Assembly (NCBI GenBank): GCA_964613805.1
Contig: CAZTJF010000004.1
Coordinates: 51,070 to 115,069, forward strand
DNA length: 64,000 nucleotides
From: an uncultured Ignavibacteriaceae bacterium
Lineage (GTDB): Bacteria; Bacteroidota; Ignavibacteria; Ignavibacteriales; Ignavibacteriaceae
Direction: 5' to 3'
Within the stretch, counting starts at the first letter, position 1. Every line of letters starts with the position of its first letter. This document shows positions 1 through 35,831 of the stretch, in pieces. The notes below the pieces were generated by a model, which did not search any database, had not been told where the DNA came from, and worked only from the letters and a program-made list of their open reading frames with translations. The translations under genes were made by a program, and so were the position numbers.

Positions 1-1026
1 AGCGGCTTTGATTTTGATCTTAAGATTAAGAAAGGTGCCGGAGCTTTCGTTTGCGGTGAAGAAACTGCACTCATTGGTTCAATCGAAGGAAGAAGAGGAA
101 TGCCCAAACCTCGTCCACCTTTCCCAAGCATTTCGGGTTTATTCGGAAAACCAACAGTGATAAATAATGTTGAAACATTTGCAAACATAACAGCAATCAT
201 TAATCGTGGTGCAGAATGGTTTTCATCAATTGGAACTGAAAAAAGTAAAGGCACAAAAGTTTTTGCTCTCAGTGGAAAAATCAGCAACACCGGATTGGTT
301 GAAGTTCCAATGGGAATGACTTTGGAAGATGTAGTATTTGATGTTGGCGGTGGAATTCCAAACCACAAGCATTTCAAAGCTGTTCAAATTGGCGGACCAT
401 CAGGAGGATGTTTACCTGAAAGTGTTATCAAGACACCTGTTGATTATGAATCACTTAAAGAAGTTGGTGCGATGATGGGTTCAGGCGGCTTCGTTGTGAT
501 GGATGAAGATACTTGTATGGTTGATATTGCTAAATTCTTCCTGACATTTATTCAAAATGAATCGTGCGGTAAATGTGTCCCCTGCAGAGAAGGTACAAAA
601 AGAATGCTTGAGATAATTGAGCGAATCCCTCATAGTTATAAAAACACCCCAAATAAATTAGATCAGCTTCAAAGATTCAAAGGAATTGTACACTTGCAGA
701 GATTAGCAAGTGTCATTCAAGATACTTCTCTTTGCGGTTTGGGGCAATCAGCACCAAATCCTGTTTTATCTGGTTTAAAATATTTTAGAGATGAATATGA
801 GCAGCATTTATATGAAAGAAAATGCTCGGTTGCTGTTTGCAAAGAGTTATTAACATTTACAATAGATAATAACATTTGTACTGGATGCGGAGTGTGCGTG
901 AGGAAATGTTCAGTTGATGCAATTGCAGGCGAAAAAGGTCATGCTCATTACATTCTTGATGATAAATGTATTAGATGCGGAATGTGTTTTGAATCCTGCA
1001 GATTCGAAGCTATCGAGGTTAACTAA
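1..1026 (+). CDS. hydB: [FeFe]-hydrogenase NAD(P)H-binding flavoprotein subunit (HydB/NuoF-like), 5' end outside window
   Basis: Frame 1 is open from base 1 ([30 protein letters not shown]...), so the start lies upstream. It has NuoF-type motifs ([36 protein letters not shown]). The C-terminus carries a 2x[4Fe-4S] ferredoxin domain ([22 protein letters not shown]). Confidence 0.88.
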
Positions 1027-1046: not shown

Positions 1047-2774
1047 ATGGTTCAGCTAACAATAAATAATATAAAAGTAAATGCAGAAGAAGGAATGACA
1101 ATTCTTGATGCTGCTAAGTCAGTCGGCATTCAGATTCCAACTTTATGTCACTTAAAAAATTTAGCGCCAACCGGTGCTTGCAGAATTTGTTCAGTGGAAG
1201 TTGAAGGACAGAAAGGATTAACGCCTTCGTGTGCCTATCCGATTTATGAAGGGATGAATGTTGAAACCAACTCACCGAGAGTTAGAAGAGCAAGAAAAAC
1301 AATCGTTGAGCTTCTGGTTGAGAATCACCCTCAAGATTGTTTGATTTGTGTTCGCAATAAAAATTGTGAACTTCAGGATTTAGCAGAGCAATATGGATTG
1401 AGAGAGCACAGATTTGCTGGTGAAAGCAAATGTCATGCGATAGATGTTTCGAGTGCATCTATGGAACGCGATCCTGCAAAGTGTATCCTTTGCGGAAGAT
1501 GTGTTCGCGTTTGTTTTGAAGTTCAGAACATTGGTGCAATTGATTTTACGAATCGTGGTTTCACAAGCATTGTTACAACTCCTTACAACAAAGGATTAAA
1601 CATCAGCGATTGTATTCTTTGCGGGCAATGTATTCTTGTTTGTCCGACAGCAGCTCTTAGAGAAAAAAGCACTTTGAAAGAAGTTTCAAATGCACTTACA
1701 AATAAAAATAAGTTTACCATTGTGCAAATTGCTCCCGCAGTGCGTGCAAGTCTTGGTGAAGAATATAACATGCCTCTTGGCACGGATGTAACCGGACAGT
1801 TAGTAACCGGATTGCGACGACTCGGATTTAAAAAAGTATTTGATACTAATTTTGCAGCCGATCTTACAATTATGGAGGAGGCATCAGAATTAATTAATCG
1901 AGTACAAAGCGGTGGAACACTTCCAATGTTTACAAGCTGCTGCCCTGGCTGGGTTAAGTATGCCGAGCAGAACAGTCCTGAAATTCTCGATCATATTTCC
2001 ACGTGCAAATCTCCGCATGAAATGGAAGGAGCAGTTCTAAAAACTTACTACGCTAAGAAAATGGGAATTGATCCCAAAGACATTTTTGTTGTTTCAATTA
2101 TGCCATGCACTGTCAAAAAATATGAATCAAACCGTGCAGAACTTAAAGAAGATGCTTTGCCTGATGTAGACGCAGTGCTCACAACTCGTGAACTTGTAAG
2201 ATTTTTCAAACTTGCCGGAATTGACTTTGAAGATTTACCACAAGATCAGTTTGATAATCCCCTTGGAGAATCAACCGGTGCAGCAGCTATTTTTGGAACA
2301 AGCGGCGGCGTGATGGAAGCCGCATTAAGAACAGCTTACTTTAAGTTGAGTGGAAAAGAATTGGATAATCTTGAATTTGAAAGTGTTCGCGGAAGCGGCG
2401 GTGTTAAGGAAGCCACTATTAATGTTAACGGTTTGGAATTGAACATAGCAGTCGTAAATGGAATTGGAAATGTAAAACCAGTGATTGATGAAATAAAAGC
2501 TGGAAAATCAAAATATCATTTTATAGAAGTGATGGCTTGTCCCGGCGGCTGTATAAACGGAGGAGGGCAGCCCATTCATCAAAAACCGGAAAGAGTGAGA
2601 AAGCGAATAAAAACTTTATACCAAATTGATGCTGAAATGCAAAAGCGTAGATCACATGAAAACGAATCTGTAAAAATTTTGTATAAAGAATTTTTAGGAG
2701 AACCTAACAGCCATAAGGCACATGAAGTTCTTCACACAGAGTATTTTAACCGAAAAGAATTATTAAATAATTGA
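1047..2774 (+). CDS. hydA: [FeFe]-hydrogenase catalytic subunit, M3-type (HydA1)
   Basis: N-terminal 2Fe-2S region (CHLKNLAPTGACRICSVEV), then HPQDCLICVRNKNC and two 4Fe-4S motifs (CILCGRCVRVC, CILCGQCILVCP). H-cluster motifs are canonical: L1 FTSCCPGWV, L2 MPCTVKKYE, L3 EVMACPGGCINGGGQP. A GGAG lies just upstream of the ATG. Confidence 0.93.
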   Translation: MVQLTINNIKVNAEEGMTILDAAKSVGIQIPTLCHLKNLAPTGACRICSVEVEGQKGLTPSCAYPIYEGMNVETNSPRVRRARKTIVELLVENHPQDCLICVRNKNCELQDLAEQYGLREHRFAGESKCHAIDVSSASMERDPAKCILCGRCVRVCFEVQNIGAIDFTNRGFTSIVTTPYNKGLNISDCILCGQCILVCPTAALREKSTLKEVSNALTNKNKFTIVQIAPAVRASLGEEYNMPLGTDVTGQLVTGLRRLGFKKVFDTNFAADLTIMEEASELINRVQSGGTLPMFTSCCPGWVKYAEQNSPEILDHISTCKSPHEMEGAVLKTYYAKKMGIDPKDIFVVSIMPCTVKKYESNRAELKEDALPDVDAVLTTRELVRFFKLAGIDFEDLPQDQFDNPLGESTGAAAIFGTSGGVMEAALRTAYFKLSGKELDNLEFESVRGSGGVKEATINVNGLELNIAVVNGIGNVKPVIDEIKAGKSKYHFIEVMACPGGCINGGGQPIHQKPERVRKRIKTLYQIDAEMQKRRSHENESVKILYKEFLGEPNSHKAHEVLHTEYFNRKELLNN

Positions 2775-2824: not shown

Positions 2825-4819
2825 ATGAACAACGGAATCGTAAGCACAATACTCGATAGATGTAAAAGATGCTATTCATGCATAAGGGAATGTCCTGCTC
2901 AAGCCATCAAAGTAATTAATGGGCAAGCGCGGGTTATTTCCGAAAGATGTATTGCCTGCGGACATTGTGTTAAGGTCTGTTCGCAAGATGCAAAGATGAT
3001 TGAAAGCGATATTGATTTAGTTACAATGGAAATTCTTCCAACCAAAAAAGCCGTTGCTATTGTTGCTCCATCATTTGCAGCATCATTTCCTGATACGTAT
3101 AGCAAGGTTCCGAGTGCTTTGCGAAAGATTGGGTTTACTAAAGTTGTTGAAACTGCTTTTGGAGCAGATTTAATCAGCAGCTATTATGAAGATGAAATTA
3201 CAAGTGAAAACAAAAAGACAATCATCAGTTCATCTTGTCCTGCAGTTATAAACTACATTGAAAAGTATCACATAGAGTTGGTTCCCAATCTTGCTAAAAT
3301 TGTTTCACCAATGATTGCAGTTGGAAGATATCTTAAAGAAAATTTAGGAAACGATACGCCAATTGTTTTTATCGGACCATGTGTGGCGAAAAAAAGCGAA
3401 TATAGGAGTGAAGAGGTTGACGGAGTAATTGAGGCAGTATTAACTTTCACTGAGTTGAAAGAAATACTTCATAAGTACAGTATAAATTTTGATAAGCTCG
3501 AAGAAAGTGATTTTGATCCGCCTCATGCTTACTTAGGAAAATCTTTTCCGCTTGCAGGCGGTTTGCTTAAAACTGCAAATGTGTCCGGTGATATTCTTGA
3601 AAAAGAAATCATTGTTGTTGAGGGCAAGAAAAAAGTTCTCGAAATAATTGAGGAAATTGCTGATAATAAAATCAATGCAAAGTTTGTTGATATACTTTTT
3701 TGCGAGGGCTGTATAAGCGGTCCGGCAATTGATTCGGATTTGAATTACTACTCACGAAGAGAAAAAGTAATTAACTACATTGATAAGAAAATTCATAACA
3801 CCGATAAGCAGCTTTGGAAAAGTAATATTTATAACAGCAGGCAAATTGATTTCTCGCGTGAGTTTAAAGAAAAAAATCAGAGAAGACCTTATCCAAGTGA
3901 AGAAAAAATTAAGGAGATTTTAGCCGAAACTGAAAAATACAGCACGAAAGATGAACTTAACTGCGGTGCTTGCGGTTACGAAACTTGCAGAGAATATGCA
4001 GTTGCAATCGCAAAAGATTTGGCTGAGAAAGAAATGTGTCTGCCTTATCTTATTGATAAACTCGGCAAAGCGTACAATGAATTGAATGAAACTCAAGAGC
4101 AATTGCGAATAGCTGAAAAACTTGCATCGGTCGGACAGCTTGCAGCCGGTGTTGCCCATGAAATAAATAATCCTTTAGGTTCAATTCTCATCTATTCTTC
4201 TATGCTAAAAAATACTATTGAAAAAGCCACTGCTGATGAACAAAGTAAAGAAGACTTGGAACTAATTATTGATGAAGCAAAAAGATGTAAGAACATTGTT
4301 TCAAACCTTCTTAATTTTGCAAGGCAGGGAAAATTAAATTTAAGCAATGTTAATTTTTCGAAACTATTAAATTCAGTGATTAAGCTGGTTAGAAATAATC
4401 CCGACTTTGCTGGTGTAAATATCAAAGTGGAAACTGACGGCAAAGGTAAAGAGATAGAAGCTGACGAGGACCAGCTTAAGCAAGTGATGTTAAATTTACT
4501 TAACAATGCCTGTGAAGCAATGTCTGATGTTAATGAGAAAATAGTTACAATTAAACTTTATGGCGAAACAGAAAATATTGTTGCAGAGGTAAGCGATTAC
4601 GGCTCTGGTATTCCTCAGGAAAATTATGGAAAGATATTTACACCATTCTTTACTACAAAAAAAATTGGAAAGGGAACAGGGTTAGGTTTAGCAATTTCTT
4701 ATGGAATAATTAAAATGCATCGAGGAGATATTACATTCACGAGCGAGGTTGGTAAAGGCACGACTTTTAAGTTGAGACTGCCTAAAAAACTACAGATTCA
4801 AAAATTTAGTCTGAATTAG
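2825..4819 (+). CDS. Sensory [FeFe]-hydrogenase-like domain (HydS type) fused to a histidine kinase
   Basis: Two 4Fe-4S motifs (CKRCYSCIRECP, CIACGHCVKVC). The H-cluster motifs are degenerate (SSSCPAV, GPCVAKKSE, ILFCEGCISGP). An exact Cx2Cx4Cx16C motif follows (CGACGYETCREYAVAIAKDLAEKEMC). Then come HisKA (AAGVAHEINNPLGSI) and HATPase_c (NLLNNACEAM ... GKGTGLGLAISYGII). The ORF track starts at TTG 2771; I prefer ATG 2825. Confidence 0.85.
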   Translation: MNNGIVSTILDRCKRCYSCIRECPAQAIKVINGQARVISERCIACGHCVKVCSQDAKMIESDIDLVTMEILPTKKAVAIVAPSFAASFPDTYSKVPSALRKIGFTKVVETAFGADLISSYYEDEITSENKKTIISSSCPAVINYIEKYHIELVPNLAKIVSPMIAVGRYLKENLGNDTPIVFIGPCVAKKSEYRSEEVDGVIEAVLTFTELKEILHKYSINFDKLEESDFDPPHAYLGKSFPLAGGLLKTANVSGDILEKEIIVVEGKKKVLEIIEEIADNKINAKFVDILFCEGCISGPAIDSDLNYYSRREKVINYIDKKIHNTDKQLWKSNIYNSRQIDFSREFKEKNQRRPYPSEEKIKEILAETEKYSTKDELNCGACGYETCREYAVAIAKDLAEKEMCLPYLIDKLGKAYNELNETQEQLRIAEKLASVGQLAAGVAHEINNPLGSILIYSSMLKNTIEKATADEQSKEDLELIIDEAKRCKNIVSNLLNFARQGKLNLSNVNFSKLLNSVIKLVRNNPDFAGVNIKVETDGKGKEIEADEDQLKQVMLNLLNNACEAMSDVNEKIVTIKLYGETENIVAEVSDYGSGIPQENYGKIFTPFFTTKKIGKGTGLGLAISYGIIKMHRGDITFTSEVGKGTTFKLRLPKKLQIQKFSLN

Positions 4820-4831
4820 AGGTTAATTTGT

Positions 4832-5245
4832 ATGTCAGAAAAAGAGAAGAAAAGAATTTTATTGGTTGATGATGATTTAGATTTACTTGAACAGCATAAA
4901 GTATTGTTCGAATCGCGCGGTTACAATGTTGTTACGGCAGATAACAGCAAAAAGGGCTGGGATTTATTTAAAGTAGAAAAACCTTATGCAGCAGTGATTG
5001 ATTTGATAATGGAAGAGCACGATGCGGGTTTTATCCTCAGTTATAAAATTAAAAAGGACAGCTATGGAAAAACTATTCCAGTTTTCGTTCTTACCTCGGC
5101 AACTTATGTAACTGGATTCAAGTTCAGTGCTTCCACTGCTGAAGAAAAAGAGTGGATAAAATGTGATGAGATAATTAATAAGCCGGTTGTGATTGATGAT
5201 CTTGTTCAAAAAATAGAAGGTTACTACGCTGCAAAGATGGCATAG
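4832..5245 (+). CDS. Stand-alone response-regulator receiver protein (CheY-like, no output domain)
   Basis: Receiver signature is present: ILLVDDD, the phospho-acceptor Asp in AAVIDLIM, LTS and INKP. At 137 aa there is no room for an output domain. Confidence 0.85.
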   Translation: MSEKEKKRILLVDDDLDLLEQHKVLFESRGYNVVTADNSKKGWDLFKVEKPYAAVIDLIMEEHDAGFILSYKIKKDSYGKTIPVFVLTSATYVTGFKFSASTAEEKEWIKCDEIINKPVVIDDLVQKIEGYYAAKMA

Positions 5246-5344: not shown

Positions 5345-6826
5345 ATGGATAACTACCCAAAACCAAAAGTGTTAATTGTGGATGACGAAAAAGGACTTCG
5401 TATGGGAACAAAGCGCCTTCTTGAAATGGAAGGATACGAAGTAGATGCTGCTCAAAACGGCACAGAAGGTATTGCTTTTGGAACCTCCTCTGATTATGAT
5501 CTTGCAGTTATTGATCTCAAAATGCCTGATTTTGACGGTATGCAAGTACTTAGGCAAATTCGTGATGTTCATCCGAACACTGTCTGTTTCATTGCAACTG
5601 CATATCCGGGATTTGATACGGCAACCGAATCTGCAAAGCTTGGTGCGTTCAACTACATTCCCAAACCATTTACACCCGAAGAACTACTAACGAATTTAAA
5701 ACAAGGTTACGATAGAAGACTTCTGCTGCTTGAAGCTGAAAAGTGGAAAAGAGAAAGAGAAGAAAGTCTTCTTGAGGTTGCGTTTGAGAAGACACGTTTA
5801 AACACAATAATAAATTCGATTACGGAAGGAATACTTGTAATTAATAAGCATGGACAAGCAGTGCTTTACAATCCAAGTGCACTTATCTACCTTCAGCTTT
5901 CTAATATTGTTATCGAAGAGTACATAATTGACAAGCTCAATCCCACAATTGCTGACCTAGTGAATAAATTTCTTTCAAAAAATATTTATGAGAAAAAATC
6001 TTACTCGGCGCAGATAGAAGTAAAACCGGAAGGCGAATTGTTTATTGAAGCTACCTCATCGCCAGTTCCACATCCGGACGGAAGTCTTGCCGGAGTTGTT
6101 GTGGTAATGAAGAATATTACTGAATCAAAAAAGCTTGAGCATCTCAAATCACAATTTGTGTCAATGGTTTCGCATGAGCTAAAAGCTCCTATAGCAGCTG
6201 TGTATGGTTACCTAAAATTATTTTCTGATCCGTCAATCGAACTGTCACAAGAGCAAAAAATTAATCACATAAATCGCTCTATAATTAGGTTGGATGGATT
6301 GCTGAAAATGGTTAATGATCTTCTTGATATTTCCCGAATGGAGATGAAAGCAGTTCACCGTGAAATCAAGGACTTGAATATTCCTGAAATTATTAATTCA
6401 ATATTTGATTTGTTCCAGAATGAAATAAAGAAAAAGAATTTGATTTTGAGTTTTCGAACAGCCGATAACCTTAAAGCAATTAAAGCTGATAATGATGAGA
6501 TTACAAGATTATTCACAAACCTTATCAGTAATGCCATCAAATACAATAAAGAGAGTGGCAACATTAGTATCAGTGTTCAGTCTGTTGATAAGTATATCTT
6601 AACGACCATAAGTGATACGGGAATTGGAATGAAACCAGAAGAAAAACGAAAGTTGTTCCAGGAATTTTTCAGAGCAAAGAATGAACAGACAAAAAATATA
6701 AGCGGAACAGGTTTGGGCTTATCAATTGTAAAAAGAATTGTAGATTCATATGCGGGCAAGATTGAAGTTGACTCAGAGTTCGAAAAAGGAACAACATTTA
6801 AAATTTATTTACCATTTGAAAATTAG
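5345..6826 (+). CDS. Hybrid sensor: N-terminal receiver + PAS + HisKA/HATPase histidine kinase
   Basis: REC domain (VLIVDDE, LAVIDLKMPDFDG, IPKPF), a PAS-like segment (LNTIINSITEGILVINKHG), the H-box (FVSMVSHELKAPI) and the ATPase domain (NLISNAIKYN ... GTGLGLSIVKRIV). Confidence 0.88.
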   Translation: MDNYPKPKVLIVDDEKGLRMGTKRLLEMEGYEVDAAQNGTEGIAFGTSSDYDLAVIDLKMPDFDGMQVLRQIRDVHPNTVCFIATAYPGFDTATESAKLGAFNYIPKPFTPEELLTNLKQGYDRRLLLLEAEKWKREREESLLEVAFEKTRLNTIINSITEGILVINKHGQAVLYNPSALIYLQLSNIVIEEYIIDKLNPTIADLVNKFLSKNIYEKKSYSAQIEVKPEGELFIEATSSPVPHPDGSLAGVVVVMKNITESKKLEHLKSQFVSMVSHELKAPIAAVYGYLKLFSDPSIELSQEQKINHINRSIIRLDGLLKMVNDLLDISRMEMKAVHREIKDLNIPEIINSIFDLFQNEIKKKNLILSFRTADNLKAIKADNDEITRLFTNLISNAIKYNKESGNISISVQSVDKYILTTISDTGIGMKPEEKRKLFQEFFRAKNEQTKNISGTGLGLSIVKRIVDSYAGKIEVDSEFEKGTTFKIYLPFEN

Positions 6827-6871: not shown

Positions 6872-7258
6872 ATGGCAAAAATAGCAATCATAGACGACGA
6901 TCCCGATATCCTTGATGCAAGTACGCTTGTGTTAAATGCAAAAGGATATGAGACTGTTACTGCTTCAAATCCTGACGACGGATACAAGATCGTTATAGAA
7001 AATTCTCCGGATCTCATCATACTTGATGTGATGATGAATGAACCGGATGACGGGTTTTTTCTTGCCCAAAAATTTCGAAAGGAAAAAATAAAAACTCCAA
7101 TAATTATGTACACATCAATTTCAAAAACCACAGGAATGGATTTTGGCAAAAGCGATATCGTTCCGGTTGATGAGTATGTTGAAAAACCAATCTCTCCGGA
7201 TGAACTTATTGAAAAAGTTGAAAAACTTTTAAAGAGAGATGCGAAAGGAAGTAAATAA
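6872..7258 (+). CDS. Stand-alone response-regulator receiver protein (paralog of 4832-5245)
   Basis: IAIIDDD, LIILDVMM, MYTS and VEKP motifs in 128 aa. No output domain. Confidence 0.85.
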   Translation: MAKIAIIDDDPDILDASTLVLNAKGYETVTASNPDDGYKIVIENSPDLIILDVMMNEPDDGFFLAQKFRKEKIKTPIIMYTSISKTTGMDFGKSDIVPVDEYVEKPISPDELIEKVEKLLKRDAKGSK

Positions 7259-7259
7259 T

Positions 7260-7733
7260 ATGTTAGTTGAAGAAAAAAATGCTTTGACTGAAGAGATTGA
7301 ACAGTTGATAAAAAAGTTTGGTAAAAGAAGATCTGCTTTGCTGTCAATTCTTCATGGTATTCAAGCTAAACACAGACATGTTTCGGAATATGCTCAGCAG
7401 GAGATAGCGCGCTTGCTGGATATTCATCCTGTTGAAGTTTACAGCGTCCTTTCATTTTTTACTTTTCTGAATGCAACTCGAAAAGGCAGAAACCTTGTCC
7501 GAATCTGCCAAACAATTACCTGCGATATGAAAGGAAAGGACAACATTGTTAGAGCCATTGAGCGTGAATTAGATGTAAAGATTGGTCAAACCACAAACGA
7601 TAATAAATTTACGGTTGAATATGTTAATTGCCTCGGTCTGTGTGATGAAGGTCCAGCTATGGCAATAAATGATCAAGTTTTTACAAAGCTCACACCTGAG
7701 AAAGCTGTTAAATTATTAAGTAAGGTGAAGTGA
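7260..7733 (+). CDS. hydC: [FeFe]-hydrogenase 2Fe-2S thioredoxin-like subunit (HydC/NuoE-like)
   Basis: NuoE pattern: SALLSILHGIQ ... CQTITCDMKG ... CLGLCDEGPAMAIND. I chose ATG 7260, one base after the preceding stop codon. The ORF track starts at 7239. Confidence 0.85.
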   Translation: MLVEEKNALTEEIEQLIKKFGKRRSALLSILHGIQAKHRHVSEYAQQEIARLLDIHPVEVYSVLSFFTFLNATRKGRNLVRICQTITCDMKGKDNIVRAIERELDVKIGQTTNDNKFTVEYVNCLGLCDEGPAMAINDQVFTKLTPEKAVKLLSKVK

Positions 7734-7740: not shown

Positions 7741-8949
7741 ATGGAAACAAAAATAAAGAAAAGAACAGGTCCGATTATATTTTCAGAGTACGAAAGAGGA
7801 TCGGCTATTAAAAAAGCTCTCGATATGAATCGAGAAGATATTCTGCTCGAAATTAGAGAATCAAAACTTAAAGGAAGAGGCGGTGCTGGTTTTCCAACTT
7901 CAACTAAATGGATGTTAACTGCAGCTTCTTTGAGTGATGAAAAATTTATTATTTGCAATGCTGATGAAGGCGAACCAGGAACGTTCAAAGATAGAGTCCT
8001 TCTAATTGAATATCCTGAACTCGTGTTAGATGGAATGGTCATTGCCGCATATACTATTGGCGCGCAGCAAGGAATAGTTTACTTGAGAGGTGAGTACGAA
8101 TATCTGCTTAAACCGCTTCAAGATTACCTCGAAGGAATGCGTAAAGACAATTTGCTTGGTAAAAACATTCTTGGCAAGCAGGGATTTTCTTTTGATATAA
8201 CTGTCTTTCTTGGTTCTGGAGCATATGTCTGCGGCGAAGAAACTGCATTGATAGAATCTTTAGAAGGGCATCGCGGTGAAGCACGTAACCGACCGCCATA
8301 TCCGGTTAACACCGGTTACATGGGAAAACCCACTATCGTAAATAATGTTGAAACACTCGCTTCGGTACCTCACATTATAGTTAAAGGATCTGCATGGTAT
8401 AAAAAACTTGGAACAGGTGTTTCAACTGGTTCGAAACTGTTTTCAGTTTCAGGTGATTGTGATAAGCCAGGTGTTTATGAATTACCTTGGGGTACTAAGA
8501 TAAGTGAACTTCTCAAATTAGTTGAAGCAAAGAATACCAAAGCTGTTCAAGTCGGTGGAGCATCTGGATTTTGCTATAATAAAAATCAGTTTAACAGAGC
8601 ACTTGCTTATGAAGATGCTGCAACTGGCGGCTCAATCATGATATTTAATGAAAACCGGGACATGCTAAGAGTGCTGGACAATTTTATGGAGTTCTTTGTA
8701 GATGAATCTTGCGGACAATGTACGCCATGCCGTATCGGTAATGTGAAAATGCTTGAAGGAGTGAAGATGATTCAAAGAGGCGACTATACTTTTGCCTATA
8801 TCAATAAACTGAAAGAATTAGGTAAATCAATGCAAGTAGCATCAAAGTGCGGATTGGGGCAATCAAGTCCAAACGCTTTCTTATCAATCTTAGAAAACTT
8901 TAATGAAGAGATATTTAACCGAGAAAATGGAGTTGACAATGAAAACTAA
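7741..8949 (+). CDS. hydB: [FeFe]-hydrogenase flavoprotein subunit, NuoF core only (HydB2)
   Basis: [53 protein letters not shown] and CGLGQSSPN motifs. It lacks the C-terminal 2x[4Fe-4S] domain present in the paralog at 1-1026. Confidence 0.9.
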   Translation: METKIKKRTGPIIFSEYERGSAIKKALDMNREDILLEIRESKLKGRGGAGFPTSTKWMLTAASLSDEKFIICNADEGEPGTFKDRVLLIEYPELVLDGMVIAAYTIGAQQGIVYLRGEYEYLLKPLQDYLEGMRKDNLLGKNILGKQGFSFDITVFLGSGAYVCGEETALIESLEGHRGEARNRPPYPVNTGYMGKPTIVNNVETLASVPHIIVKGSAWYKKLGTGVSTGSKLFSVSGDCDKPGVYELPWGTKISELLKLVEAKNTKAVQVGGASGFCYNKNQFNRALAYEDAATGGSIMIFNENRDMLRVLDNFMEFFVDESCGQCTPCRIGNVKMLEGVKMIQRGDYTFAYINKLKELGKSMQVASKCGLGQSSPNAFLSILENFNEEIFNRENGVDNEN

Positions 8950-10855
8950 AGAAACTTCCCGAGCTCCTGTAAGTCAACAGGCACATGTTATTCAAAAACC
9001 AGAGCATCCGGAATACATCGGCGGTTCCATTTCGGTTGAGATAAATGAGAAGAAAGTTACTGTTCCAATGGGAACAACAATTCTCGAAGCGTGCAGACAA
9101 AATCAAGTTTATGTTCCAACGTTATGCCATCACGATGATTTGTGTATTGCCGGCGTTTGCAGAATATGCGTGGTTGACGTTGAAGGAATGAGAACTTTAC
9201 AAGCTGCTTGCGCTTTTCCAATTACGGCACCAATAAAAATTAGAACTTCAACTCCAATGGTTCGCAAAGCAAGAAAGCATATCATTGATCTTCTTCTAAG
9301 CGAGCATTACGGTGAATGTTACTCGTGTTTTAGAAATAACAACTGTGAGCTTCAAACACTGGCAAAAGAATATGGTGTTGATCATTACAATTTTGGTCAT
9401 GTTGAAAATCCAAGATATGAAGTTGATAGCTCGTCCTATTCTGTTGTTCGTGATATGGATAAATGTATCTTGTGCAAAAGATGCGTTCGCACCTGCATAG
9501 ATTTACAGGAAGTCGGTGTGCTTGAAGCAATTGGTAGAGGATATAAAACTCGCATCGGCACTTTTTCAGAAAAACCATTAGCAGAAGTTGTGTGTATTAA
9601 TTGCGGGCAATGCATAAATCGCTGTCCAACCGCTGCATTACGAGCTAACGATCCTCGTGACGAAATTTGGGAGGCAATTGATAATCCGGATAAGCATGTT
9701 GTAATTCAAACAGCACCCTCTCCGAGGGCTGGAATTGGTGAGGAATTTGGAATCGAACCAGGTCATTCTTTTACAGGAGAAATGAACACGGCATTAAGAA
9801 GAATCGGTTTCGATAGAGTATTCGATACAAACTTTACTGCCGATCTAACAATAATGGAAGAAGGAACTGAATTACTGCTTCGGCTTTACAAAGCACTTGT
9901 CAAAAAAGATACTTCTGTCGTGATACCTCAATTTACATCATGTTCACCGGGCTGGGTAAAGTACCTCGAACATTTTTATCCCGAATTTATTCCGAATCTC
10001 AGTTCAGCAAAATCACCGCAGCAAATGTTTGGTGCACTTATAAAAACTTATTATGCCAAGAAGCATAACATTGACCCTGCTAACATTGTTAGTGTTGCGG
10101 TTATGCCTTGCTCAGCAAAGAAGTTTGAGTGCAACAGACCTGAAATGACTTCATCCGGATTTAAGGATGTTGATTATGGATTGACGGCACGTGAACTTGC
10201 TCAAATGATTAAAGAATCAGGAATTTATTTACCTGAAATGCCAAAGTCCAATTTTGATGATCCATTTGGTGATGCATCAGGTGCAGGACTTATTTTCGGT
10301 GCAACCGGCGGTGTAATGGAAGCAGCACTTAGAACGGTGATTGAATTAGTTACTGGAATAAAAGTTGAAAAAGTTTTTGATAATATGAACATCATGCCAG
10401 TTAGAGGATTTGAAGGAATTAAATATGCCGAACTTCCAATTACAAAAGTCGGACCTGTTCCCAAAATTTTAACTCATCTTGTTCCTAACTGGGATTGGCT
10501 AAAGGGAGCAACCGTAAAAGTAGCAGTTGCGCATGGTACAGCCAACGCAAAGAGAGTAATTGAGGATATCAAAGCCGGCGGTAAATTCAGCGAATGTCAT
10601 TTCATTGAATTCATGGCTTGTCCTGGCGGATGTATAGGAGGCGGTGGTCAGCCAATTCCTACAAATGCTGAGATTAGACGACTTAGAGCAAAAGCAATTT
10701 ATGATGAAGATGCTTCGCTCGGATTGCGAAAATCTCACGAGAACACTCACGTATTAAAACTGTATGAAGAATTTTTGACTGATGGTCCTTGCGGGCACAC
10801 GGCGCATAAACTGCTTCATACGCATTATACGAAGAGAGGAAAGTTTATTTCCTAA
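8939..10855 (+). CDS. hydA: [FeFe]-hydrogenase catalytic subunit, M3-type (HydA2) with variant L1 motif
   Basis: 2Fe-2S region (CHHDDLCIAGVCRICVVDV), HYGECYSCFRNNNC, CILCKRCVRTC and CINCGQCINRCP. H-cluster motifs: L1 FTSCSPGWV (variant), L2 MPCSAKKFE, L3 EFMACPGGCIGGGGQP. The start is ambiguous (ATG 8903, 8927 or 8939). I chose 8939 because a GGAG lies 6 nt upstream. Confidence 0.9.
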   Translation: MKTKETSRAPVSQQAHVIQKPEHPEYIGGSISVEINEKKVTVPMGTTILEACRQNQVYVPTLCHHDDLCIAGVCRICVVDVEGMRTLQAACAFPITAPIKIRTSTPMVRKARKHIIDLLLSEHYGECYSCFRNNNCELQTLAKEYGVDHYNFGHVENPRYEVDSSSYSVVRDMDKCILCKRCVRTCIDLQEVGVLEAIGRGYKTRIGTFSEKPLAEVVCINCGQCINRCPTAALRANDPRDEIWEAIDNPDKHVVIQTAPSPRAGIGEEFGIEPGHSFTGEMNTALRRIGFDRVFDTNFTADLTIMEEGTELLLRLYKALVKKDTSVVIPQFTSCSPGWVKYLEHFYPEFIPNLSSAKSPQQMFGALIKTYYAKKHNIDPANIVSVAVMPCSAKKFECNRPEMTSSGFKDVDYGLTARELAQMIKESGIYLPEMPKSNFDDPFGDASGAGLIFGATGGVMEAALRTVIELVTGIKVEKVFDNMNIMPVRGFEGIKYAELPITKVGPVPKILTHLVPNWDWLKGATVKVAVAHGTANAKRVIEDIKAGGKFSECHFIEFMACPGGCIGGGGQPIPTNAEIRRLRAKAIYDEDASLGLRKSHENTHVLKLYEEFLTDGPCGHTAHKLLHTHYTKRGKFIS

Positions 10856-10865
10856 GTACATTCAT

Positions 10866-10903
10866 AAAAATCCCTCTCCGAGTGAGAGGGATTTTTAGTT
10901 TTT
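10866..10903 (+). terminator. Rho-independent terminator after hydA2
   Basis: A perfect 13-bp stem: aaaaatccctctc (10866-10878) pairs with gagagggattttt (10884-10896), with loop cgagt. T-rich sequence follows. Confidence 0.8.
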
Positions 10904-10999: not shown

Positions 11000-12502
11000 A
11001 TGAAAAAAGTCCTTTTTTTCTGTTTATGCTCTTTTCTTTCATATCAATTATTAGCTCAACCCTTCCAGAAAAAGCAGATAACAAATTTTGATTGGGATTC
11101 AAGAGGTGCTGTAATTCCAAATTATCCGCTTGGAATTTCAACCTTGCCCAATTCGCCAATATTTTTTGAGGCACATAAGAATAATTCTTCTAACATTATG
11201 ATGATGAGCTACAGTCCGAATGCTGACAGCTTTTACAATCCCACTGAGCTAACAAAGAACAATTTCCTTAATATAAATGCTGATGCAAGCTGCAGCCAAA
11301 TTTATCCTAATGTTAAAGTCAATATAATTTGGCAAACCAACGAAAATGGTAATTGGGATATTGCACTTAGAACACTAACAGATTCCACTTGGAGTGCAAA
11401 AAAATACATAGCTAATTCTCTATCAAATGAAACCAACCCTAAATTTGTTGCAAGACATAATAATCATTTTCCCACAGCAACTTCTATTGAAGTTTTATAT
11501 GAAAGAGATAACAGCATTTATCTTTATAAAGAGACTGAGTCAGTTGTGACTAATGAAATAGTTTTCAGTGGTGATAGTTTGAATAAATTCACTCAGTCCA
11601 CTGGAATTTATTATGATGTTTGGTTTGGACCCCCCTCCGGTTTGTATGTAGCTGCTGTTTACAAACCAAATGATACGGCTTCTATTATTGTTTATCGTTA
11701 TAAAGCAAACGAAGATTCGGTTTGGAGTCCAATTCTCACAGCTTATGACAGCGGTTATTGTGAAAATCCAAGTTTTTACAACGTGTTTTTTGAACAATGT
11801 CCAATGAGTTTTGAAAAGGTAATCGGAAACAAACGACAAGTATTTGTTATACCCAAATTGGAGTATCTTGGTCAAAACAACCAAGCCGTTAAGCTCACAG
11901 ATAATACAGCAACCAGCACTTCAAACTTGAAGATGTTCATGTATGGTATGGTTGGTAAAAAAGAAAACTTAGAGGATTATTATTTCTCAGGACCTCATTC
12001 ATTTAAATCAATTTCCAATGACTCAACCTACATTGTTTGTTTATTTTATCCTTTTCCAGTACATGCAATGTTTTATTCTAAAGTAGCTGACAGTAGAATT
12101 GGTTTGGGTAATATCGGTATGTTTTACGGCTATGCTGTCTCTTATCGAATTTGGGAAGATAGTTCCGATGGAAAAATTAATTTATTTGGTTTTTTGATGT
12201 ATGATCCTTTGGGAAATGTAGATGATAAAATTGAGGCAACTAATTTTCAGCTTTACCAAAATTACCCCAACCCCTTTAATCCCAACACTGTAATTCGGTA
12301 TAGCTTACTCTCAAGAGATTTTGTTACCCTTAAAGTTTTTGACGTATTGGGAAATGAAGTTGCAGCATTAGTAAATGATGAAATGGATGCTGGTGAATAC
12401 AAAACAATTTTTGATGGATCAAATTTAGCAAGCGGAATTTATGTCTATCGGCTGACGGTTGGAAAGAATTATATTAGTCGAAAGATGATATTATTAAAAT
12501 AA
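11000..12502 (+). CDS. Secreted protein of unknown function with T9SS C-terminal sorting domain
   Basis: Signal peptide (MKKVLFFCLCSFLSYQLLAQ). The C-terminal ~80 aa (LYQNYPNPFNPNTVIRYSL ... GIYVYRLTVGKNYISRKMILLK) match the T9SS type-A CTD pattern. Confidence 0.75.
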   Translation: MKKVLFFCLCSFLSYQLLAQPFQKKQITNFDWDSRGAVIPNYPLGISTLPNSPIFFEAHKNNSSNIMMMSYSPNADSFYNPTELTKNNFLNINADASCSQIYPNVKVNIIWQTNENGNWDIALRTLTDSTWSAKKYIANSLSNETNPKFVARHNNHFPTATSIEVLYERDNSIYLYKETESVVTNEIVFSGDSLNKFTQSTGIYYDVWFGPPSGLYVAAVYKPNDTASIIVYRYKANEDSVWSPILTAYDSGYCENPSFYNVFFEQCPMSFEKVIGNKRQVFVIPKLEYLGQNNQAVKLTDNTATSTSNLKMFMYGMVGKKENLEDYYFSGPHSFKSISNDSTYIVCLFYPFPVHAMFYSKVADSRIGLGNIGMFYGYAVSYRIWEDSSDGKINLFGFLMYDPLGNVDDKIEATNFQLYQNYPNPFNPNTVIRYSLLSRDFVTLKVFDVLGNEVAALVNDEMDAGEYKTIFDGSNLASGIYVYRLTVGKNYISRKMILLK

Positions 12503-12706: not shown

Positions 12707-14116
12707 ATGATACGATTAATTCCTGATTGGGCACACAAATACGAAGCATTTTGGGATGCTATACGAAAACGCAACATGTGGTTCATCAAGCTGCGTTATG
12801 GAGCCGTGTTAATGCTCACAAGTTTTATTCTTGCTTCCGAATATTTCCTCGGATTTAAGTTTACCGAGACGCAAACTATTGCTATATCTGTAATAACAAT
12901 ATCAATTTTGACTTATAATGCACTTTTACATATTGGTAAGAAACATATTAAATCAATCGCTGGACAATTTAATCCTCTCCATCTTTCAGTAATTCAGATA
13001 CTTTTAGATTTTATTGCACTCTTTTTACTCGTTCATTTTACCGGAGGAATCGAAACACCATTATACATGCTATTTGTTTTTCATATGATAATTGGAAGCT
13101 TGATACTTCCGGGTTCAATAATTTACCCTGTCGGAGCTGTTGTTGTGTTAGGTTTTGGCGGTATTGTTTTTTCAGAATATTATCACATCATTCCGCATTA
13201 TGCCATTCAAGGTTTCCTAAATACTCAACTTTATGATGATTTCAATTACGTTGTATCAATCTTTACAATTTTTGGATTTACAATTTTTATTAGCATTTAT
13301 CTTGCAAATGGAATTGCACGTCAACTCTATAGTATGGAACAGGATTTAATTGAAACCCTTGATCGTCTCAACGTTGCAGAAATGGAAAAGCAAAGGTATA
13401 TCGTGGGGATTGTTCATGAGATAAAAACACCACTAACAGCAGTTCAGTCTTATTTAAATTTGATACTACAAAAATTCCTTGGACCTCTCGATAAAAAAGT
13501 TGAAGAACGACTAATCAGAGCGCGTACAAGATCTGAAGAAGCAATACACCTAATAAATGATGTGATAAAAATTTCAAGGTTTAAATTATTTAATCAGTTT
13601 GTTCATGAAGAAATTCTGATTGAAGAAGTGATGAGCGAACTTGCAAATAAACATTCCGAAATTGCAGAAACTAAAAAGATTAAACTGGTATTTAATGATA
13701 ACAGGAAAACCAATACAAAAATAAAGGGCGATAAATTTTTGTTAACACTTGCAATTTCAAATCTTATTGGCAATGCCGTAAAATTTGTCGGTAAGAAAGG
13801 ATTAATTGAAGTGAATATGGAAGATGATGAGAATAACCTGCTTATTTCCATTTGTGATAATGGTATGGGCATTCCTGAAAACGAATTAGAGAAAATATTC
13901 ATAGCATTCTTCAGGTCATCTAACGTAAGTAAAGATAAGCAAGAGGGAGCCGGAATTGGTTTATCAATTGTAAAAGAAATTATTGAAAAGCATGAGGGAA
14001 AAATCTCAGTCGAAAGTCCTTCAAGATTAACAAACGGCAATAAACCTGGAACGTGCTTTAAAATACAATTACCTAAAATCAATATTTCATCAATAAAAAA
14101 AGGAGGAGTTCAATGA
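12707..14116 (+). CDS. Polytopic membrane sensor histidine kinase
   Basis: About six hydrophobic segments with short loops at the N-terminus. H-box (IVGIVHEIKTPLTAV) and HATPase_c (NLIGNAVKF ... DNGMGIP ... GAGIGLSIVKEII). The stop overlaps the next start (ATGA at 14113). Confidence 0.85.
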   Translation: MIRLIPDWAHKYEAFWDAIRKRNMWFIKLRYGAVLMLTSFILASEYFLGFKFTETQTIAISVITISILTYNALLHIGKKHIKSIAGQFNPLHLSVIQILLDFIALFLLVHFTGGIETPLYMLFVFHMIIGSLILPGSIIYPVGAVVVLGFGGIVFSEYYHIIPHYAIQGFLNTQLYDDFNYVVSIFTIFGFTIFISIYLANGIARQLYSMEQDLIETLDRLNVAEMEKQRYIVGIVHEIKTPLTAVQSYLNLILQKFLGPLDKKVEERLIRARTRSEEAIHLINDVIKISRFKLFNQFVHEEILIEEVMSELANKHSEIAETKKIKLVFNDNRKTNTKIKGDKFLLTLAISNLIGNAVKFVGKKGLIEVNMEDDENNLLISICDNGMGIPENELEKIFIAFFRSSNVSKDKQEGAGIGLSIVKEIIEKHEGKISVESPSRLTNGNKPGTCFKIQLPKINISSIKKGGVQ

Positions 14117-15477
14117 ACAACATTACTTCTAAAATTATCTTTTCCACCGCACTTATTTTTATTTTCTGTTTTGATAATTATTCACAGCAAGTGAAAGCCG
14201 GCGATCATGCGTTGGGCACAAGAAAATATGAAGACTTCAGCAAAGCCACTCTTTGCGGATCTGCGTGTCATAATGATTTCTTTCAGCAGTGGAAACAGGC
14301 AATGATGTCCCAATGTTATCATCACGAGTGGGATGAAATAGAATACTTCAAGCTTGCTGTTCCACATGCAGAGAAAGATCAGATTGTTGCCGGAGTTAAA
14401 GCGGGATGCAACGGTTGTCATGCGCCAATTTCATTTTTAGCTGGTGATGTTCCTCCACCAAAGCCAGATAAAATGTCTATGGCTAATGAATCTGTAAACT
14501 GCGATGTTTGTCATACAGTAACCGGATTTGAAGGTGATACACCATTCAACTTCAACTTTATTTCTTCGCCGGGAAATGTGAAGTATGGACCGAGAGAAAA
14601 TGTTGAATCGCCCGAACATGAAATAAAGAAATCTGAATTCTTAGCTAGTGCAGAATTTTGCGGTACATGCCACAATGAAAAAGATCCCTATGGAATTTGG
14701 GTTAAGTCAACACATCTTGAATGGAAGGAAGGTCCATATGCAAAGGAAGGCGTTAAATGCCAAAATTGCCACATGACTTATGCACCAGGATATACCGCTG
14801 CGATGGGGAAATTTTATCCGGATACTCGTCAGCATCTATTTCACGGTGCTCATGATCCTGGTAAAGTAAAAGGCACAATTGAATTACGAATCCATCCCGA
14901 CATAAATGAAGCTGAACCTGGCGAAAGAGTAAAATTCACAATTGCATTGTTCAATCAAAAAACCGGACACAAATTTCCAACTGGTTCAGTGGAAGATAGA
15001 ATTGTCTGGATGCACGTCGAAGCGGTTGATGCTAAAGGAAAAGTATATCACATACCTGTGGATAAAAAAGGTTTCGCGGGCGAAGAATTTACAATTGGAA
15101 GTGATGCGCTTGCTTATCAGGATATGGGAATAGCTTTGAACGATGAGAATTTCAAAGGCGTACAGCGTGATGGAATTCCAATTGGAGATAGGATATTTCG
15201 CATGCCGTATTTTGATCCTCAAGGTCGAATGACAATTCAGCAGTGGAACACAAAATCTCTTGGTGTTGATTACAGGATCGGACCAAGAGAAACAAAATTA
15301 GAAACTTGTACTTTCACTCTGCCGAATAATCTTCCACCAGGAAAACTTAAAGTCACTGCTATTTTAAATTATCAGAAACTTGTAAAACCGGTTGCAGATT
15401 TTCTTGGTGTTCCCGAAGAAGAATCAGAGATTATCAAAGTAAATGAGCATTCAACTTACGTTAACATTTTACCATAG
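14113..15477 (+). CDS. Periplasmic multiheme cytochrome c (4 CxxCH + 1 CxxxCH)
   Basis: Signal peptide present. Heme motifs: CGSACH (Cx3CH), CNGCH, CDVCH, CGTCH and CQNCH. The C-terminal ~170 aa are beta-rich and have no heme motifs. Confidence 0.85.
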   Translation: MNNITSKIIFSTALIFIFCFDNYSQQVKAGDHALGTRKYEDFSKATLCGSACHNDFFQQWKQAMMSQCYHHEWDEIEYFKLAVPHAEKDQIVAGVKAGCNGCHAPISFLAGDVPPPKPDKMSMANESVNCDVCHTVTGFEGDTPFNFNFISSPGNVKYGPRENVESPEHEIKKSEFLASAEFCGTCHNEKDPYGIWVKSTHLEWKEGPYAKEGVKCQNCHMTYAPGYTAAMGKFYPDTRQHLFHGAHDPGKVKGTIELRIHPDINEAEPGERVKFTIALFNQKTGHKFPTGSVEDRIVWMHVEAVDAKGKVYHIPVDKKGFAGEEFTIGSDALAYQDMGIALNDENFKGVQRDGIPIGDRIFRMPYFDPQGRMTIQQWNTKSLGVDYRIGPRETKLETCTFTLPNNLPPGKLKVTAILNYQKLVKPVADFLGVPEEESEIIKVNEHSTYVNILP

Positions 15478-31182: not shown

Positions 31183-31248
31183 AAATTTTGGATATTTTTC
31201 AGTAAATATCGGTTGTTGATTCTAACCAAAAATCTTTTGAGGTACCCA

Positions 31249-32337
31249 ATGGATAAAATATCATATCAGCTTAAGGAGAGAAAAGAAAAACCGATTCTTC
31301 CAACAAATTTGGGCTTTGGACAAATATTTTCGGATCATGTTTTTGAAATGGATTATAGTGACAAGCGGGGTTGGCATAATCCTTCGATAAAACCGTTAGA
31401 AAACTTATCACATCATCCTGCAACAATGTTTATTCACTATGGTCAAGCAGTTTTTGAAGGATTAAAAGCCTTTAAAACTAAAGATGAAGATGTTGTTATT
31501 TTTAGACCAGAACGACATCTTCAAAGATTAAATAATTCTTCTAGGAGATTATGCATTCCTGAAATTGAAGTTGAATTTGTTTTATCTGCATTAAAGGAAT
31601 TGGTTTGGATTGATAAAGATTGGATTCCCACAAAGAAAGGGGAATCATTATATATTCGACCATTTGTTTATGGAGCAGATCCGGTTTTAGGAGTTAAACC
31701 CGCATCCACATATAAACTTATTATTCTGTTATCTCCAGTTGGAGCTTATTATCCCGAAGGATTTAAACCTTTAAAAATATTAGCAACTGATGAGTATGTT
31801 CGCGCTGTGAGAAAAGGTATTGGTGAGTGTAAAACCCCTGGAAATTATGCTGCCAGTTTATATGCTAGTGAATTTGCAAGACGTCAGGGTTTCACTCAAG
31901 TACTTTGGATGGATGGTGTTGAGCAAAAGTACATCGAGGAAGTTGGAACAATGAACATCTTCATAAGATTTAAAAACGAAGTTGCTACTCCCAAATTAAC
32001 AGGTGGGATTTTACCTGGAATCACTCGCGAGTCAGTCATTCAAATTCTCAAAGATTGGGAAATGAAAGTAATCGAAAGATTAATTCCAATGGATGAGGTT
32101 ATAGCTGAATATAAAAAGGGAAATGTTCTTGGTGTTTTCGGTACGGGAACAGCTGCAATAATTTCCGAAGTTGGCTTGTTGAAATACAAACATTTGGAGA
32201 TGACTTTTAAAAGTAATCAGTCGAATGACTTGGCACTTCAACTTTTTGATAAATTAACCTCCATTCATTATGGAATTTCTGAGGATAAATATAATTGGCT
32301 TACCCATGTAACTGGAAAAGAAGTTGAAGTTTCATAA
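31249..32337 (+). CDS. ilvE: Branched-chain amino acid aminotransferase (class IV)
   Basis: Typical BCAT features: FSDHVF, YGQAVFEGLKAF, RRLCIPE, GECKTPGNYAAS and GILPGITR. I chose ATG 31249 rather than the ORF-track TTG at 31213. Confidence 0.9.
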   Translation: MDKISYQLKERKEKPILPTNLGFGQIFSDHVFEMDYSDKRGWHNPSIKPLENLSHHPATMFIHYGQAVFEGLKAFKTKDEDVVIFRPERHLQRLNNSSRRLCIPEIEVEFVLSALKELVWIDKDWIPTKKGESLYIRPFVYGADPVLGVKPASTYKLIILLSPVGAYYPEGFKPLKILATDEYVRAVRKGIGECKTPGNYAASLYASEFARRQGFTQVLWMDGVEQKYIEEVGTMNIFIRFKNEVATPKLTGGILPGITRESVIQILKDWEMKVIERLIPMDEVIAEYKKGNVLGVFGTGTAAIISEVGLLKYKHLEMTFKSNQSNDLALQLFDKLTSIHYGISEDKYNWLTHVTGKEVEVS

Positions 32338-33403: not shown

Positions 33404-33448
33404 ATTACTGAATTTCCGCTATCTTTTTTTACTTTTCAAAAAAATATC

Positions 33449-33488: not shown

Positions 33489-33501
33489 ATTGAACACATA
33501 T

Positions 33502-34149: not shown

Positions 34150-34159
34150 AAGAAATAAA

Positions 34160-34399: not shown

Positions 34400-34425
34400 T
34401 TGTTTTTAAACAATCGAGGTATAAA

Positions 34426-35827: not shown

Positions 35828-35831
35828 CCTA

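Follow-up and report, generated by a model that had tools for sequence, protein, structure and literature searches.

Here we report on hydS-HK, a gene for a sensory [FeFe]-hydrogenase-like protein that is joined directly to a histidine kinase. It is located at positions 2825-4819 (+ strand) of a 64,000-nt stretch of DNA from an uncultured Ignavibacteriaceae bacterium (contig CAZTJF010000004.1, positions 51,070 to 115,069; hereafter the window). The protein is probably a soluble, cytoplasmic sensor histidine kinase that uses a low-turnover [FeFe]-hydrogenase of the HydS type as input and regulates the neighbouring hydrogenases in response to H2, a reading to which we assign a probability of about 0.68. 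We describe its anatomy, its conservation, its synteny and a helix that is locked in heptad register, and we infer that H2 or the state of the cluster controls autophosphorylation, which is made more plausible by the conserved synteny, the modular swapping of outputs and the heptad-locked linker. The kinase-fused architecture is not rare, and hydS-HK adds one more member to a large subgroup of sensory [FeFe]-hydrogenases that is already catalogued; it is not a new kind of system. Newly described are the capping by C405 of one long helix that runs into His445, the variation of linker length in heptad steps, a downstream relay without a DNA-binding output, and the occurrence of the sensor module in fusions with sigma-54 activators and GGDEF domains.

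The gene consists of a single open reading frame (ORF) that encodes 664 amino acids (aa) from an ATG start codon, and an identical protein with an unchanged start is present in public data (P0001). The initial annotation of this DNA had described two [4Fe-4S] motifs followed by an H-cluster domain, an exact Cx2Cx4Cx16C motif, and C-terminal HisKA and HATPase_c domains. Pfam matches (Fer4 at residues 9-56, Fe_hyd_lg_C at residues 74-300, and E values of 2.3e-16 and 8.4e-26 for the two kinase domains) and the translation agree with this description, and all hydS-HK motifs quoted there were found at their positions (Table 1). Residues 1-420 contain exactly 16 Cys, of which eight belong to the two N-terminal clusters, four to the H-cluster and four to the C-terminal cluster. 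A PAS domain hidden between cluster and kinase was rejected, as an AlphaFold2 model (built from a 43-sequence alignment; mean predicted local distance difference test score, pLDDT, 89.6) was all-helical in this part and Pfam gave no match; the connector at residues 301-379 was modelled as helical and not as a PAS fold.

In an alignment with the catalytic enzyme CpI, all four ligands of the H-cluster are kept (C300, C355, C499 and C503, corresponding to C138, C186, C293 and C296 of hydS-HK), as is K358. At the positions of the proton relay and pathway, C299 is replaced by Ser, E279 by Tyr and S319 by Ala, R286 falls into a gap, and E282 is kept; M353 is replaced by Gly (G184) and M497 by Leu. 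This alignment bears out the substitutions that had been expected at C299, M353 and M497, including the loss of the Cys preceding a cluster-ligand Cys, which occurs together with the extra four-Cys motif in its exact spacing. The three H-cluster signatures had also been called degenerate relative to the two catalytic paralogs in the window. This is correct for second-sphere residues and for L3, which is one residue short (Cx2C, CEGC, versus the canonical Cx3C, CPGGC), but not for the ligand Cys, and the L1 sequence FTSCCPGW ascribed to both paralogs is present only in HydA1, HydA2 having FTSCSPGW.

The sensor module (residues 1-420) was compared with representatives of protein clusters (50% identity) in an exhaustive HMMER search, and most of the 150 best representatives were roughly 30-50% identical to it. 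In this set, conservation reaches at least 90% for each of the eight N-terminal, four H-cluster and four C-terminal Cys (the H-cluster ligands being invariant or at least 90% conserved among relatives), the M353 column holds Gly in nearly all sequences, and the C299 column is variable (A/P/S/T/C/N/H). P82, S161/P162 and G184-P185-C186 are likewise conserved throughout the family. The C-terminal four-Cys motif is present in every complete sequence of the 150; its spacing is exact in 213 of 227 relatives, and its Cys are invariant within the kinase-fused set.

Membership in the catalytic group A was rejected on the motifs, the NCBIfam scores and an identity of 26% between the sensor half and the co-resident HydA1. 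The protein lies far under the NCBIfam cutoffs for groups A and B (105-107 bits with the group A models, whose cutoffs are 406-765); it has SSSCPAV/GPCVAKK/ILFCEGC in place of the group A signatures TSCCPxW/MPCxxK/ExMxCxxGCxxG and is without an Fe_hyd_SSU domain. Group D (M2e), the type of TamHydS from Thermoanaerobacter mathranii, was also rejected in view of the Gly at M353 and the kinase output of 260 aa, because the proteins of that group carry Ser/Thr at M353 and are without an output domain (PMC8163306). TmHydS of Thermotoga maritima shows the sensory hallmarks A131 at C299, Gly at M353 and S267 at M497, and M353 is replaced by Gly in about half of the sensory enzymes (PMC10055695). The residue hallmarks of hydS-HK support a putatively sensory, group C-like H-domain rather than a catalytic one, and forms with a kinase domain appear from the literature to score as group C3 (PMC11406978). 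A search of the PDB returned no solved structure of HydS type; the best matches were group A enzymes (20-24% identity) and kinase cores.

Judged by its sequence, the kinase part appears competent. It has the H, N, G1, F and G2 boxes, and these are conserved across 43 diverse kinase-fused relatives, in which N561, D591, G593, G595, F608 and G621 are invariant. By sequence the transmitter is of the NtrB-like class I (HisKA type), with AtoS and ZraS as best NCBIfam matches and ZraS (9jfj) as the closest solved kinase core (36% identity; template-modelling score, TM-score, of 0.78 over the target). The AlphaFold2 model contains the helices of the dimerization and histidine phosphotransfer (DHp) domain at residues 406-468 and 472-500, the latter being the return helix of the hairpin, followed by an alpha/beta domain.

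In the same model, residues 406-468 form one unbroken helix that starts right after C405, the last Cys of the C-terminal cluster, and passes through His445. For all direct fusions, the linker between the final Cys of the cluster and the His of the H-box was measured, which yielded 97 distinct linker sequences. Almost all of them (94) have lengths that are congruent modulo 7, namely 33 (3 sequences), 40 (23, including hydS-HK), 47 (61), 54 (5) or 68 residues (2); lengths of 38, 48 and 49 residues occur once each. The ends of the linker are conserved (start, CLP[YF]LI..LE; end, LIQ.EKLAS.GQLAAGVAHE.NNPL), and length varies by insertion of whole heptads in the middle, with Leu/Ile at positions 1, 8, 15, 22 and 29. 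Because the linker sequences are related, the independent evidence lies in the number of length classes; if lengths were free, four alternative lengths would all be in register with a chance of about (1/7)^4. The linkers of PAS-kinases are rigid coiled-coil signalling helices with a heptad signature in their lengths, and by the same signature the modelled linker of hydS-HK is such a helix. The heptad-locked helix would place the C-terminal cluster domain directly in the path of transmission. Coiled-coil linkers of this kind were reportedly described by Moglich and colleagues in 2009 for the PAS-histidine kinases FixL and the engineered YF1. As in hydS-HK, a continuous coiled coil connects sensor and DHp domain in FixL/YF1, and its natural lengths belong to heptad classes, but the sensor is a PAS domain and not an FeS-cluster domain in which a ligand Cys caps the helix.

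The sensor module is widespread and is joined to different outputs. It is matched by 1073 cluster representatives at E<=1e-30, and a homologous kinase is present on about 44 of the 150 nearest ones. Among 123 representatives analysed with Pfam, 43 carry HisKA/HATPase domains, some of them with additional domains (PAS between cluster and kinase in six, a receiver in three, GAF in one). The other 80 include 28 with PAS, 15 with Sigma54_activat (11 of these also with HTH_8) and 4 with GGDEF domains; P0124 and P0144 are examples of fusions to a sigma-54 activator or GGDEF domain. A neighbour-joining tree of the sensor module, which is rough and has no support values, contains a large group of PAS-only proteins of TmHydS-like length, mostly with Cx3C in L3, and a second group, mostly with Cx2C, that intermingles kinase, sigma-54 and GGDEF outputs. 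Correspondingly, Cx2C is found in most kinase-, sigma54- and GGDEF-fused relatives and Cx3C, as in the catalytic enzymes, in most PAS-only ones. That one module has repeatedly been joined to three classes of signalling output provides strong circumstantial evidence for a role as sensor, and the sequences indicate that it behaves as a modular sensor domain. A literature search found no paper on sigma-54 or GGDEF fusions of the HydS module.

A scan with one genome per species yielded at least 572 loci with relatives, of which the best 80, all from metagenome-assembled genomes, were examined. Full-length kinase fusions in these 80 loci occur in genomes named under more than 15 phylum-level groups, and the sequence of the window falls with Ignavibacteriaceae and Ignavibacteriales. 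The carriers comprise Ignavibacteria, Bacteroidota, Calditrichaeota, Hydrogenedentales, Planctomycetota (including Kuenenia), Myxococcota, Desulfobacteraceae, Smithella, Syntrophorhabdus, Acidobacteriota, Verrucomicrobiota/Victivallales, Spirochaetota, Elusimicrobiota, Anaerolineae, Dehalococcoidales, Thermoleophilia and other Actinomycetes, Armatimonadia, and Clostridia. Five Bacteroidales loci (L038, L051, L053, L062 and L076) contain a second HydS-type gene of 540-665 aa, which is kinase-less and precedes hydC closely on the other strand, in agreement with the 'two bfuT genes' reported for Bacteroidota (PMC11406978).

The gene lies between two sets of genes for HydABC-type hydrogenases. On a longer public contig (L001), the order is hydC1, hydB1, hydA1, hydS-HK, RR1, HK2, RR3, hydC2, hydB2 and hydA2, with hydA1 ending 51 nt upstream of hydS-HK. 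Three receiver domains are encoded within 2.5 kb, and their translations show an intact acidic pocket, Asp, Thr/Ser and Lys. Synteny was counted in 79 related loci. Of these, 64 have a group A hydA within 10 kb, and among the 70 with sufficient sequence the hydA lies directly upstream in 44. A stand-alone receiver (the RR1 ortholog) follows directly downstream in 57 of 75 loci, and 61 of 70 have a second kinase not more than 1.2 kb downstream. This second kinase has the architecture REC-HisKA-HATPase_c (REC, receiver domain) and about 380 aa in four examples from other phyla; the versions of Ignavibacteria add a PAS domain. Several loci, among them the Smithella loci L067 and L068, have kept the sensor-receiver-receiver-kinase triad without hydABC genes nearby, which identifies the signalling triad as the conserved core.

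In Melioribacter roseus, the gene order of MROS_2480-2488 equals that of the window; MROS_2483 is annotated as 'sigma-54 dependent transcription regulator', and it is not among the only three [FeFe]-hydrogenases counted in the genome paper (PMC3534657). A homolog search with a Melioribacteraceae query gave no match bearing the name of that organism, and the link of MROS_2483 to hydS-HK is one of gene order only. In a proteome table, MROS_2483, MROS_2485 and MROS_2486 are listed in three of three replicates and MROS_2484 in one of three under one condition, with none under the other; according to the main text, the hydrogenases of the cluster were detected under fermentative conditions only (PMC5492636).

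In the proposed mechanism, H2 would be bound and split at the H-cluster, as in TmHydS and TamHydS. A resulting change in the state or conformation of the H-cluster or the accessory clusters would pass through the C-terminal [4Fe-4S] domain, whose C405 caps the continuous coiled-coil helix. Continuing into the DHp helix that carries His445, this helix would shift the balance of kinase and phosphatase activity in either direction and set the phosphorylation of the co-transcribed RR1 and/or of the receiver of HK2, possibly also of RR3. By way of this relay, which is devoid of output domains, the level of H2 would tune the production or activity of the flanking HydABC enzymes. More tentatively, and with less than even odds, the C-terminal [4Fe-4S] domain may be a mechanical transducer that converts an H2-driven conformational change, rather than a redox change of its cluster, into a rotation or piston movement of the helix towards the kinase. 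From there a conserved relay of two kinases and two or three receivers without DNA-binding output would carry the signal on, perhaps acting post-translationally on HydABC or other proteins instead of by way of a dedicated transcription factor, and the clade-specific Cx2C at the bridging Cys would be part of the tuning from catalyst to switch.

Several observations weigh against a kinase controlled by H2. L3 has the spacing Cx2C in place of the canonical Cx3C, and a normal H-cluster at this site is putative. The C-terminal cluster of TamHydS remained unreduced under 1 atm H2 in a 2026 study that refutes the favoured idea of a redox change (PMC13104023); therefore, a simple redox switch at this cluster is doubtful, and a conformational rather than a redox role is favoured. 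The related linker sequences represent fewer independent events than their number of 97. Pfam detected no DNA-binding or other output domain on the receivers of the cluster and of the four examples from other phyla, and a scan of the L001 cluster for sigma-54 promoters (TGGCAC-N5-TTGCW) gave four matches with two mismatches, compared with eight expected by chance. Because the cluster contains no DNA-binding regulator and no sigma-54 signal above chance, the link to hydrogenase expression is circumstantial. A scan of L001 for sigma-70-type promoters also remained at background, and the promoters of the phylum probably lie outside the consensus of both scans. The maturase genes hydE, hydF and hydG were not found among the window ORFs scanned, which says nothing about the whole genome; the ORFs of maturase-like size were lpxD, lpxC-fabZ, lpxA and others, and the three ORFs behind the cluster encode a kinase, a multihaem-like protein and a protein of no known kind. 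Lastly, no biochemical or genetic work on kinase-fused members was found in the literature search.

FeS-based redox-sensing kinases are common, and hydS-HK could instead be a cellular redox sensor, in which the N-terminal [4Fe-4S] clusters exchange electrons with ferredoxin or HydABC, the kinase reports on the state of this pool, and the H-site is vestigial or structural. Such a role would suit the shortened L3, which departs from every canonical H-cluster signature, and the existence of group C1 proteins without recognisable H-cluster motifs (PMC11406978). We consider it unlikely, as the four H-cluster Cys and the equivalents of K358, P231-S232 and S323-P324 are conserved across many phyla, which is hard to reconcile with an empty [2Fe] site, and as TmHydS and TamHydS incorporate a functional H-cluster (PMC8163306, PMC10055695).

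There is even less to be expected of a view in which the protein is a fourth, catalytic or electron-routing subunit of HydABC ('BfuT') and the kinase domain is secondary or serves in ATP binding. The position directly after hydA in 44 of 70 loci, the treatment of the gene as part of the BfuABC gene cluster (PMC11406978) and the reversible, though slow, catalysis of TamHydS (PMC8163306) are in line with such a subunit. However, the proton-transfer pathway has been lost, all boxes of the kinase are intact and adjoined by cognate-looking receivers, relatives carry the module in fusions with sigma-54 activators and GGDEF domains, and several loci, such as those of Smithella, keep the triad without hydABC. 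Least probable, by a little, is a sensor of O2 or CO that responds to damage or inhibition of the H-cluster and, in air, switches off the oxygen-sensitive hydrogenases: TamHydS reacts rapidly with O2 to a defined product and is unusually tolerant to CO (PMC8163306), and Ignavibacteria such as M. roseus are facultative anaerobes whose syntenic cluster was seen in fermenting and not in aerobic cells (PMC5492636), but an irreversible reaction with O2 is ill suited to reversible sensing, and the family is also widespread in strict anaerobes (Smithella, Syntrophorhabdus, Dehalococcoidales, Kuenenia).

The reading of hydS-HK as an H2-responsive kinase has to be seen against the systems already described. 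HydDB listed the groups C1 ('histidine kinase-linked'), C2 and C3 ('phosphatase-linked') as putative in 2016 (PMC5037454), and a 2024 study of Hydrogenedentota described bfuC-B-A-T clusters, also in Caldithrix abyssi and some Bacteroidota, in which BfuT is a group C3 protein with a histidine kinase domain (PMC11406978). The statement of the initial annotation that kinase-linked group C enzymes are known only as bioinformatic classes is in agreement with these two papers and with a literature search that found no biochemical work. BfuT resembles hydS-HK in its combination of H-domain and histidine kinase domain and in its position downstream of bfuC-B-A (= hydC-B-A), and relatives from Hydrogenedentales (L032) and Calditrichaeota (L026) align over their full length with 42-44% identity and share the synteny. 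The BfuT paper is restricted to bioinformatics and makes no mention of response regulators; the downstream receiver and receiver-kinase, the heptad-locked linker and the Cx2C in L3 do not appear there.

Reviews and spectroscopic papers of 2023-2026, which deal with PAS-containing or output-less enzymes only, call the sensory role putative (PMC8924675, PMC10055695, PMC13104023); TmHydS and TamHydS bind an H-cluster, turn over slowly and have sensor-like properties (PMC8163306, PMC10055695). TmHydS (group C, M2f; studied by spectroscopy) shares with hydS-HK the two N-terminal [4Fe-4S] clusters, the loss of C299, the Gly at M353, the C-terminal Cx2Cx4Cx16C motif and the genetic linkage to a trimeric HydABC. 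It differs in having Ala rather than Ser at C299 and Ser rather than Leu at M497, and it ends in a PAS domain without enzymatic output, whereas the cluster domain of hydS-HK joins the kinase directly and without PAS. TamHydS has the same module of three clusters and H-cluster and also Leu at M497, but no fused output and, as a group D protein, Ser/Thr instead of Gly at M353; a separate gene for a HATPase-like protein adjoins it (PMC8163306).

HydS of Ruminococcus albus and HfsB of Thermoanaerobacterium are likewise putative H2-sensing proteins with an H-domain whose genes accompany those of hydrogenases; HfsB is backed by regulatory evidence (PMC8924675), and the R. albus protein, named in PMC8924675, is phosphatase-linked, which corresponds to class C3 (PMC5037454). 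Their output proceeds via a Ser/Thr phosphatase or separate proteins and not via a fused two-component transmitter. The [NiFe] systems HoxBC-HoxJ-HoxA and HupUV-HupT-HupR (HydDB group 2b) are similar in logic: H2 is sensed by a hydrogenase of low activity, which controls a histidine kinase and, through it, the hydrogenase genes. They differ from hydS-HK in having an unrelated metal site and fold, separate sensor and kinase proteins, and a DNA-binding output of the NtrC type, which is absent here.

The coordinates of all features are listed in Table 1. HydB1 (661 aa) has a C-terminal ferredoxin domain with two [4Fe-4S] clusters that HydB2 (402 aa) lacks; the sensor cassette thus lies between two different types of HydABC, an arrangement conserved in Ignavibacteria loci, and one may speculate that the cell chooses between the two enzymes according to H2 pressure. 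The L1 sequence FTSCSPGW of HydA2, with Ser at the second Cys of TSCCP, is also found in PDB entry 7q4v (chain A), in 38 of 66 hydA genes examined beside sensor-kinase genes and in 19 of 20 downstream copies of the hydA2 type (loci L003-L082). The cluster is followed by genes for a protein with a T9SS tail (11000-12502) and a histidine kinase of 469 aa (12707-14116), the latter being conserved after hydA2 in many Ignavibacteria loci; the kinase gene overlaps the start of an ORF (14113-15477) with weak likeness to a multihaem cytochrome (ExtKL, 39 bits, under the cutoff). Outside the window, L001 encodes a stand-alone small GTPase of 168 aa (1622-2128) upstream of hydC1; among the NCBIfam models it is matched best by the GTPase domain of the maturase HydF, with 80 bits, far below the cutoff of 326 bits. 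The scanned part of the window at 31213-45627 holds housekeeping genes (ilvE, bamA, lpxD, lpxC-fabZ, lpxA and panB).

Table 1. Features of hydS-HK and its gene cluster (positions in the window).
Feature	Position	Strand	Basis
hydB1, 3' part, NuoF-like flavoprotein; 661 aa in L001 (2861-4846), preceded there by hydC1	1..1026	+	Pfam; L001 gene table
hydA1, catalytic group A subunit of HydABC-type enzyme	1047..2774	+	NCBIfam NF040763, 879 bits, above cutoff; Pfam
hydS-HK, sensory [FeFe]-hydrogenase-like protein with histidine kinase, 664 aa	2825..4819	+	ORF; Pfam architecture; identical public protein P0001
N-terminal ferredoxin-like domain, two CxxCxxCxxxC [4Fe-4S] motifs (C13/16/19/23, C42/45/48/52)	2849..2992	+	Pfam Fer4 dicluster, aa 9-56; Cys >=90% conserved in 150 representatives
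H-domain, aa 74-300; H-cluster ligands C138, C186, C293, C296	3044..3724	+	Pfam PF02906 Fe_hyd_lg_C, E 1.2e-54; CpI alignment
L1, SSSCPAV	3227-3247	+	Translated at exact coordinates
L2, GPCVAKKSE	3374-3400	+	Translated at exact coordinates
L3, ILFCEGCISGP	3692-3724	+	Translated at exact coordinates
Helical connector, aa 301-379	3725..3961	+	AlphaFold2 helices 308-325, 328-340, 359-368, pLDDT >90; no Pfam PAS match
C-terminal [4Fe-4S] motif CGACGYETCREYAVAIAKDLAEKEMC, exact Cx2Cx4Cx16C, C380/C383/C388/C405	3962..4039	+	PF04060 FeS match, aa 378-407, E 1.6e-9
Predicted signalling helix, aa 406-444, last cluster Cys to phospho-accepting His; linker positions 1, 8, 15 and 22 form a Leu heptad	4040..4156	+	AlphaFold2; linker length classes
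HisKA/DHp domain, aa 437-501	4133..4327	+	Pfam HisKA, E 2.3e-16
H-box HEINNPL (His445 codon 4157-4159)	4157-4177	+	H445 >=90% conserved in kinase-fused set
HATPase_c, aa 547-655; N box NLLNNA, G1 DYGSGI, F FTPFF, G2 GKGTGLGL	4463..4789	+	Pfam, E 8.4e-26
RR1, stand-alone receiver of 137 aa, separated from hydS-HK by 12 nt	4832..5245	+	Pfam Response_reg
HK2, REC-PAS-HisKA-HATPase_c, 493 aa, receiver-controlled second kinase	5345..6826	+	Pfam
RR3, second stand-alone receiver, 128 aa	6872..7258	+	Pfam Response_reg, 1e-19; conserved in Ignavibacteria loci
hydC2, NuoE-like; public gene call from 7260	7239..7733	+	Pfam 2Fe-2S_thioredx, 7.7e-46
hydB2, short NuoF-like, 402 aa, without C-terminal ferredoxin domain	7741..8949	+	Pfam
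hydA2, second catalytic group A subunit, L1 FTSCSPGW; public gene call from 8939	8903..10855	+	NCBIfam NF040763, 804 bits
Intrinsic-terminator-like hairpin, 14-bp stem followed by T run, 10 nt after hydA2	10865..10897	+	Only strong plus-strand one in cluster

Reviews still treat H2 sensing by [FeFe]-hydrogenases of groups C and D as putative (PMC8924675). The enzymes studied so far have no measurable output because they end in a PAS domain or in nothing. A kinase-fused member offers a direct enzymatic readout, namely autophosphorylation and phosphotransfer with and without H2, and the heptad-locked linker provides a precise hypothesis for the coupling that can be addressed by mutation. Together with the output-less relay and the Cx2C variant, this link is a concrete and testable addition to a catalogued family. 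If the reading is true, an H2-responsive kinase would also be a compact part for biosensors. The family is spread very widely among anaerobes, such as syntrophs, anammox bacteria, and Bacteroidota of guts or sediments, so that its function bears on the control of H2 production in fermenters and syntrophs.

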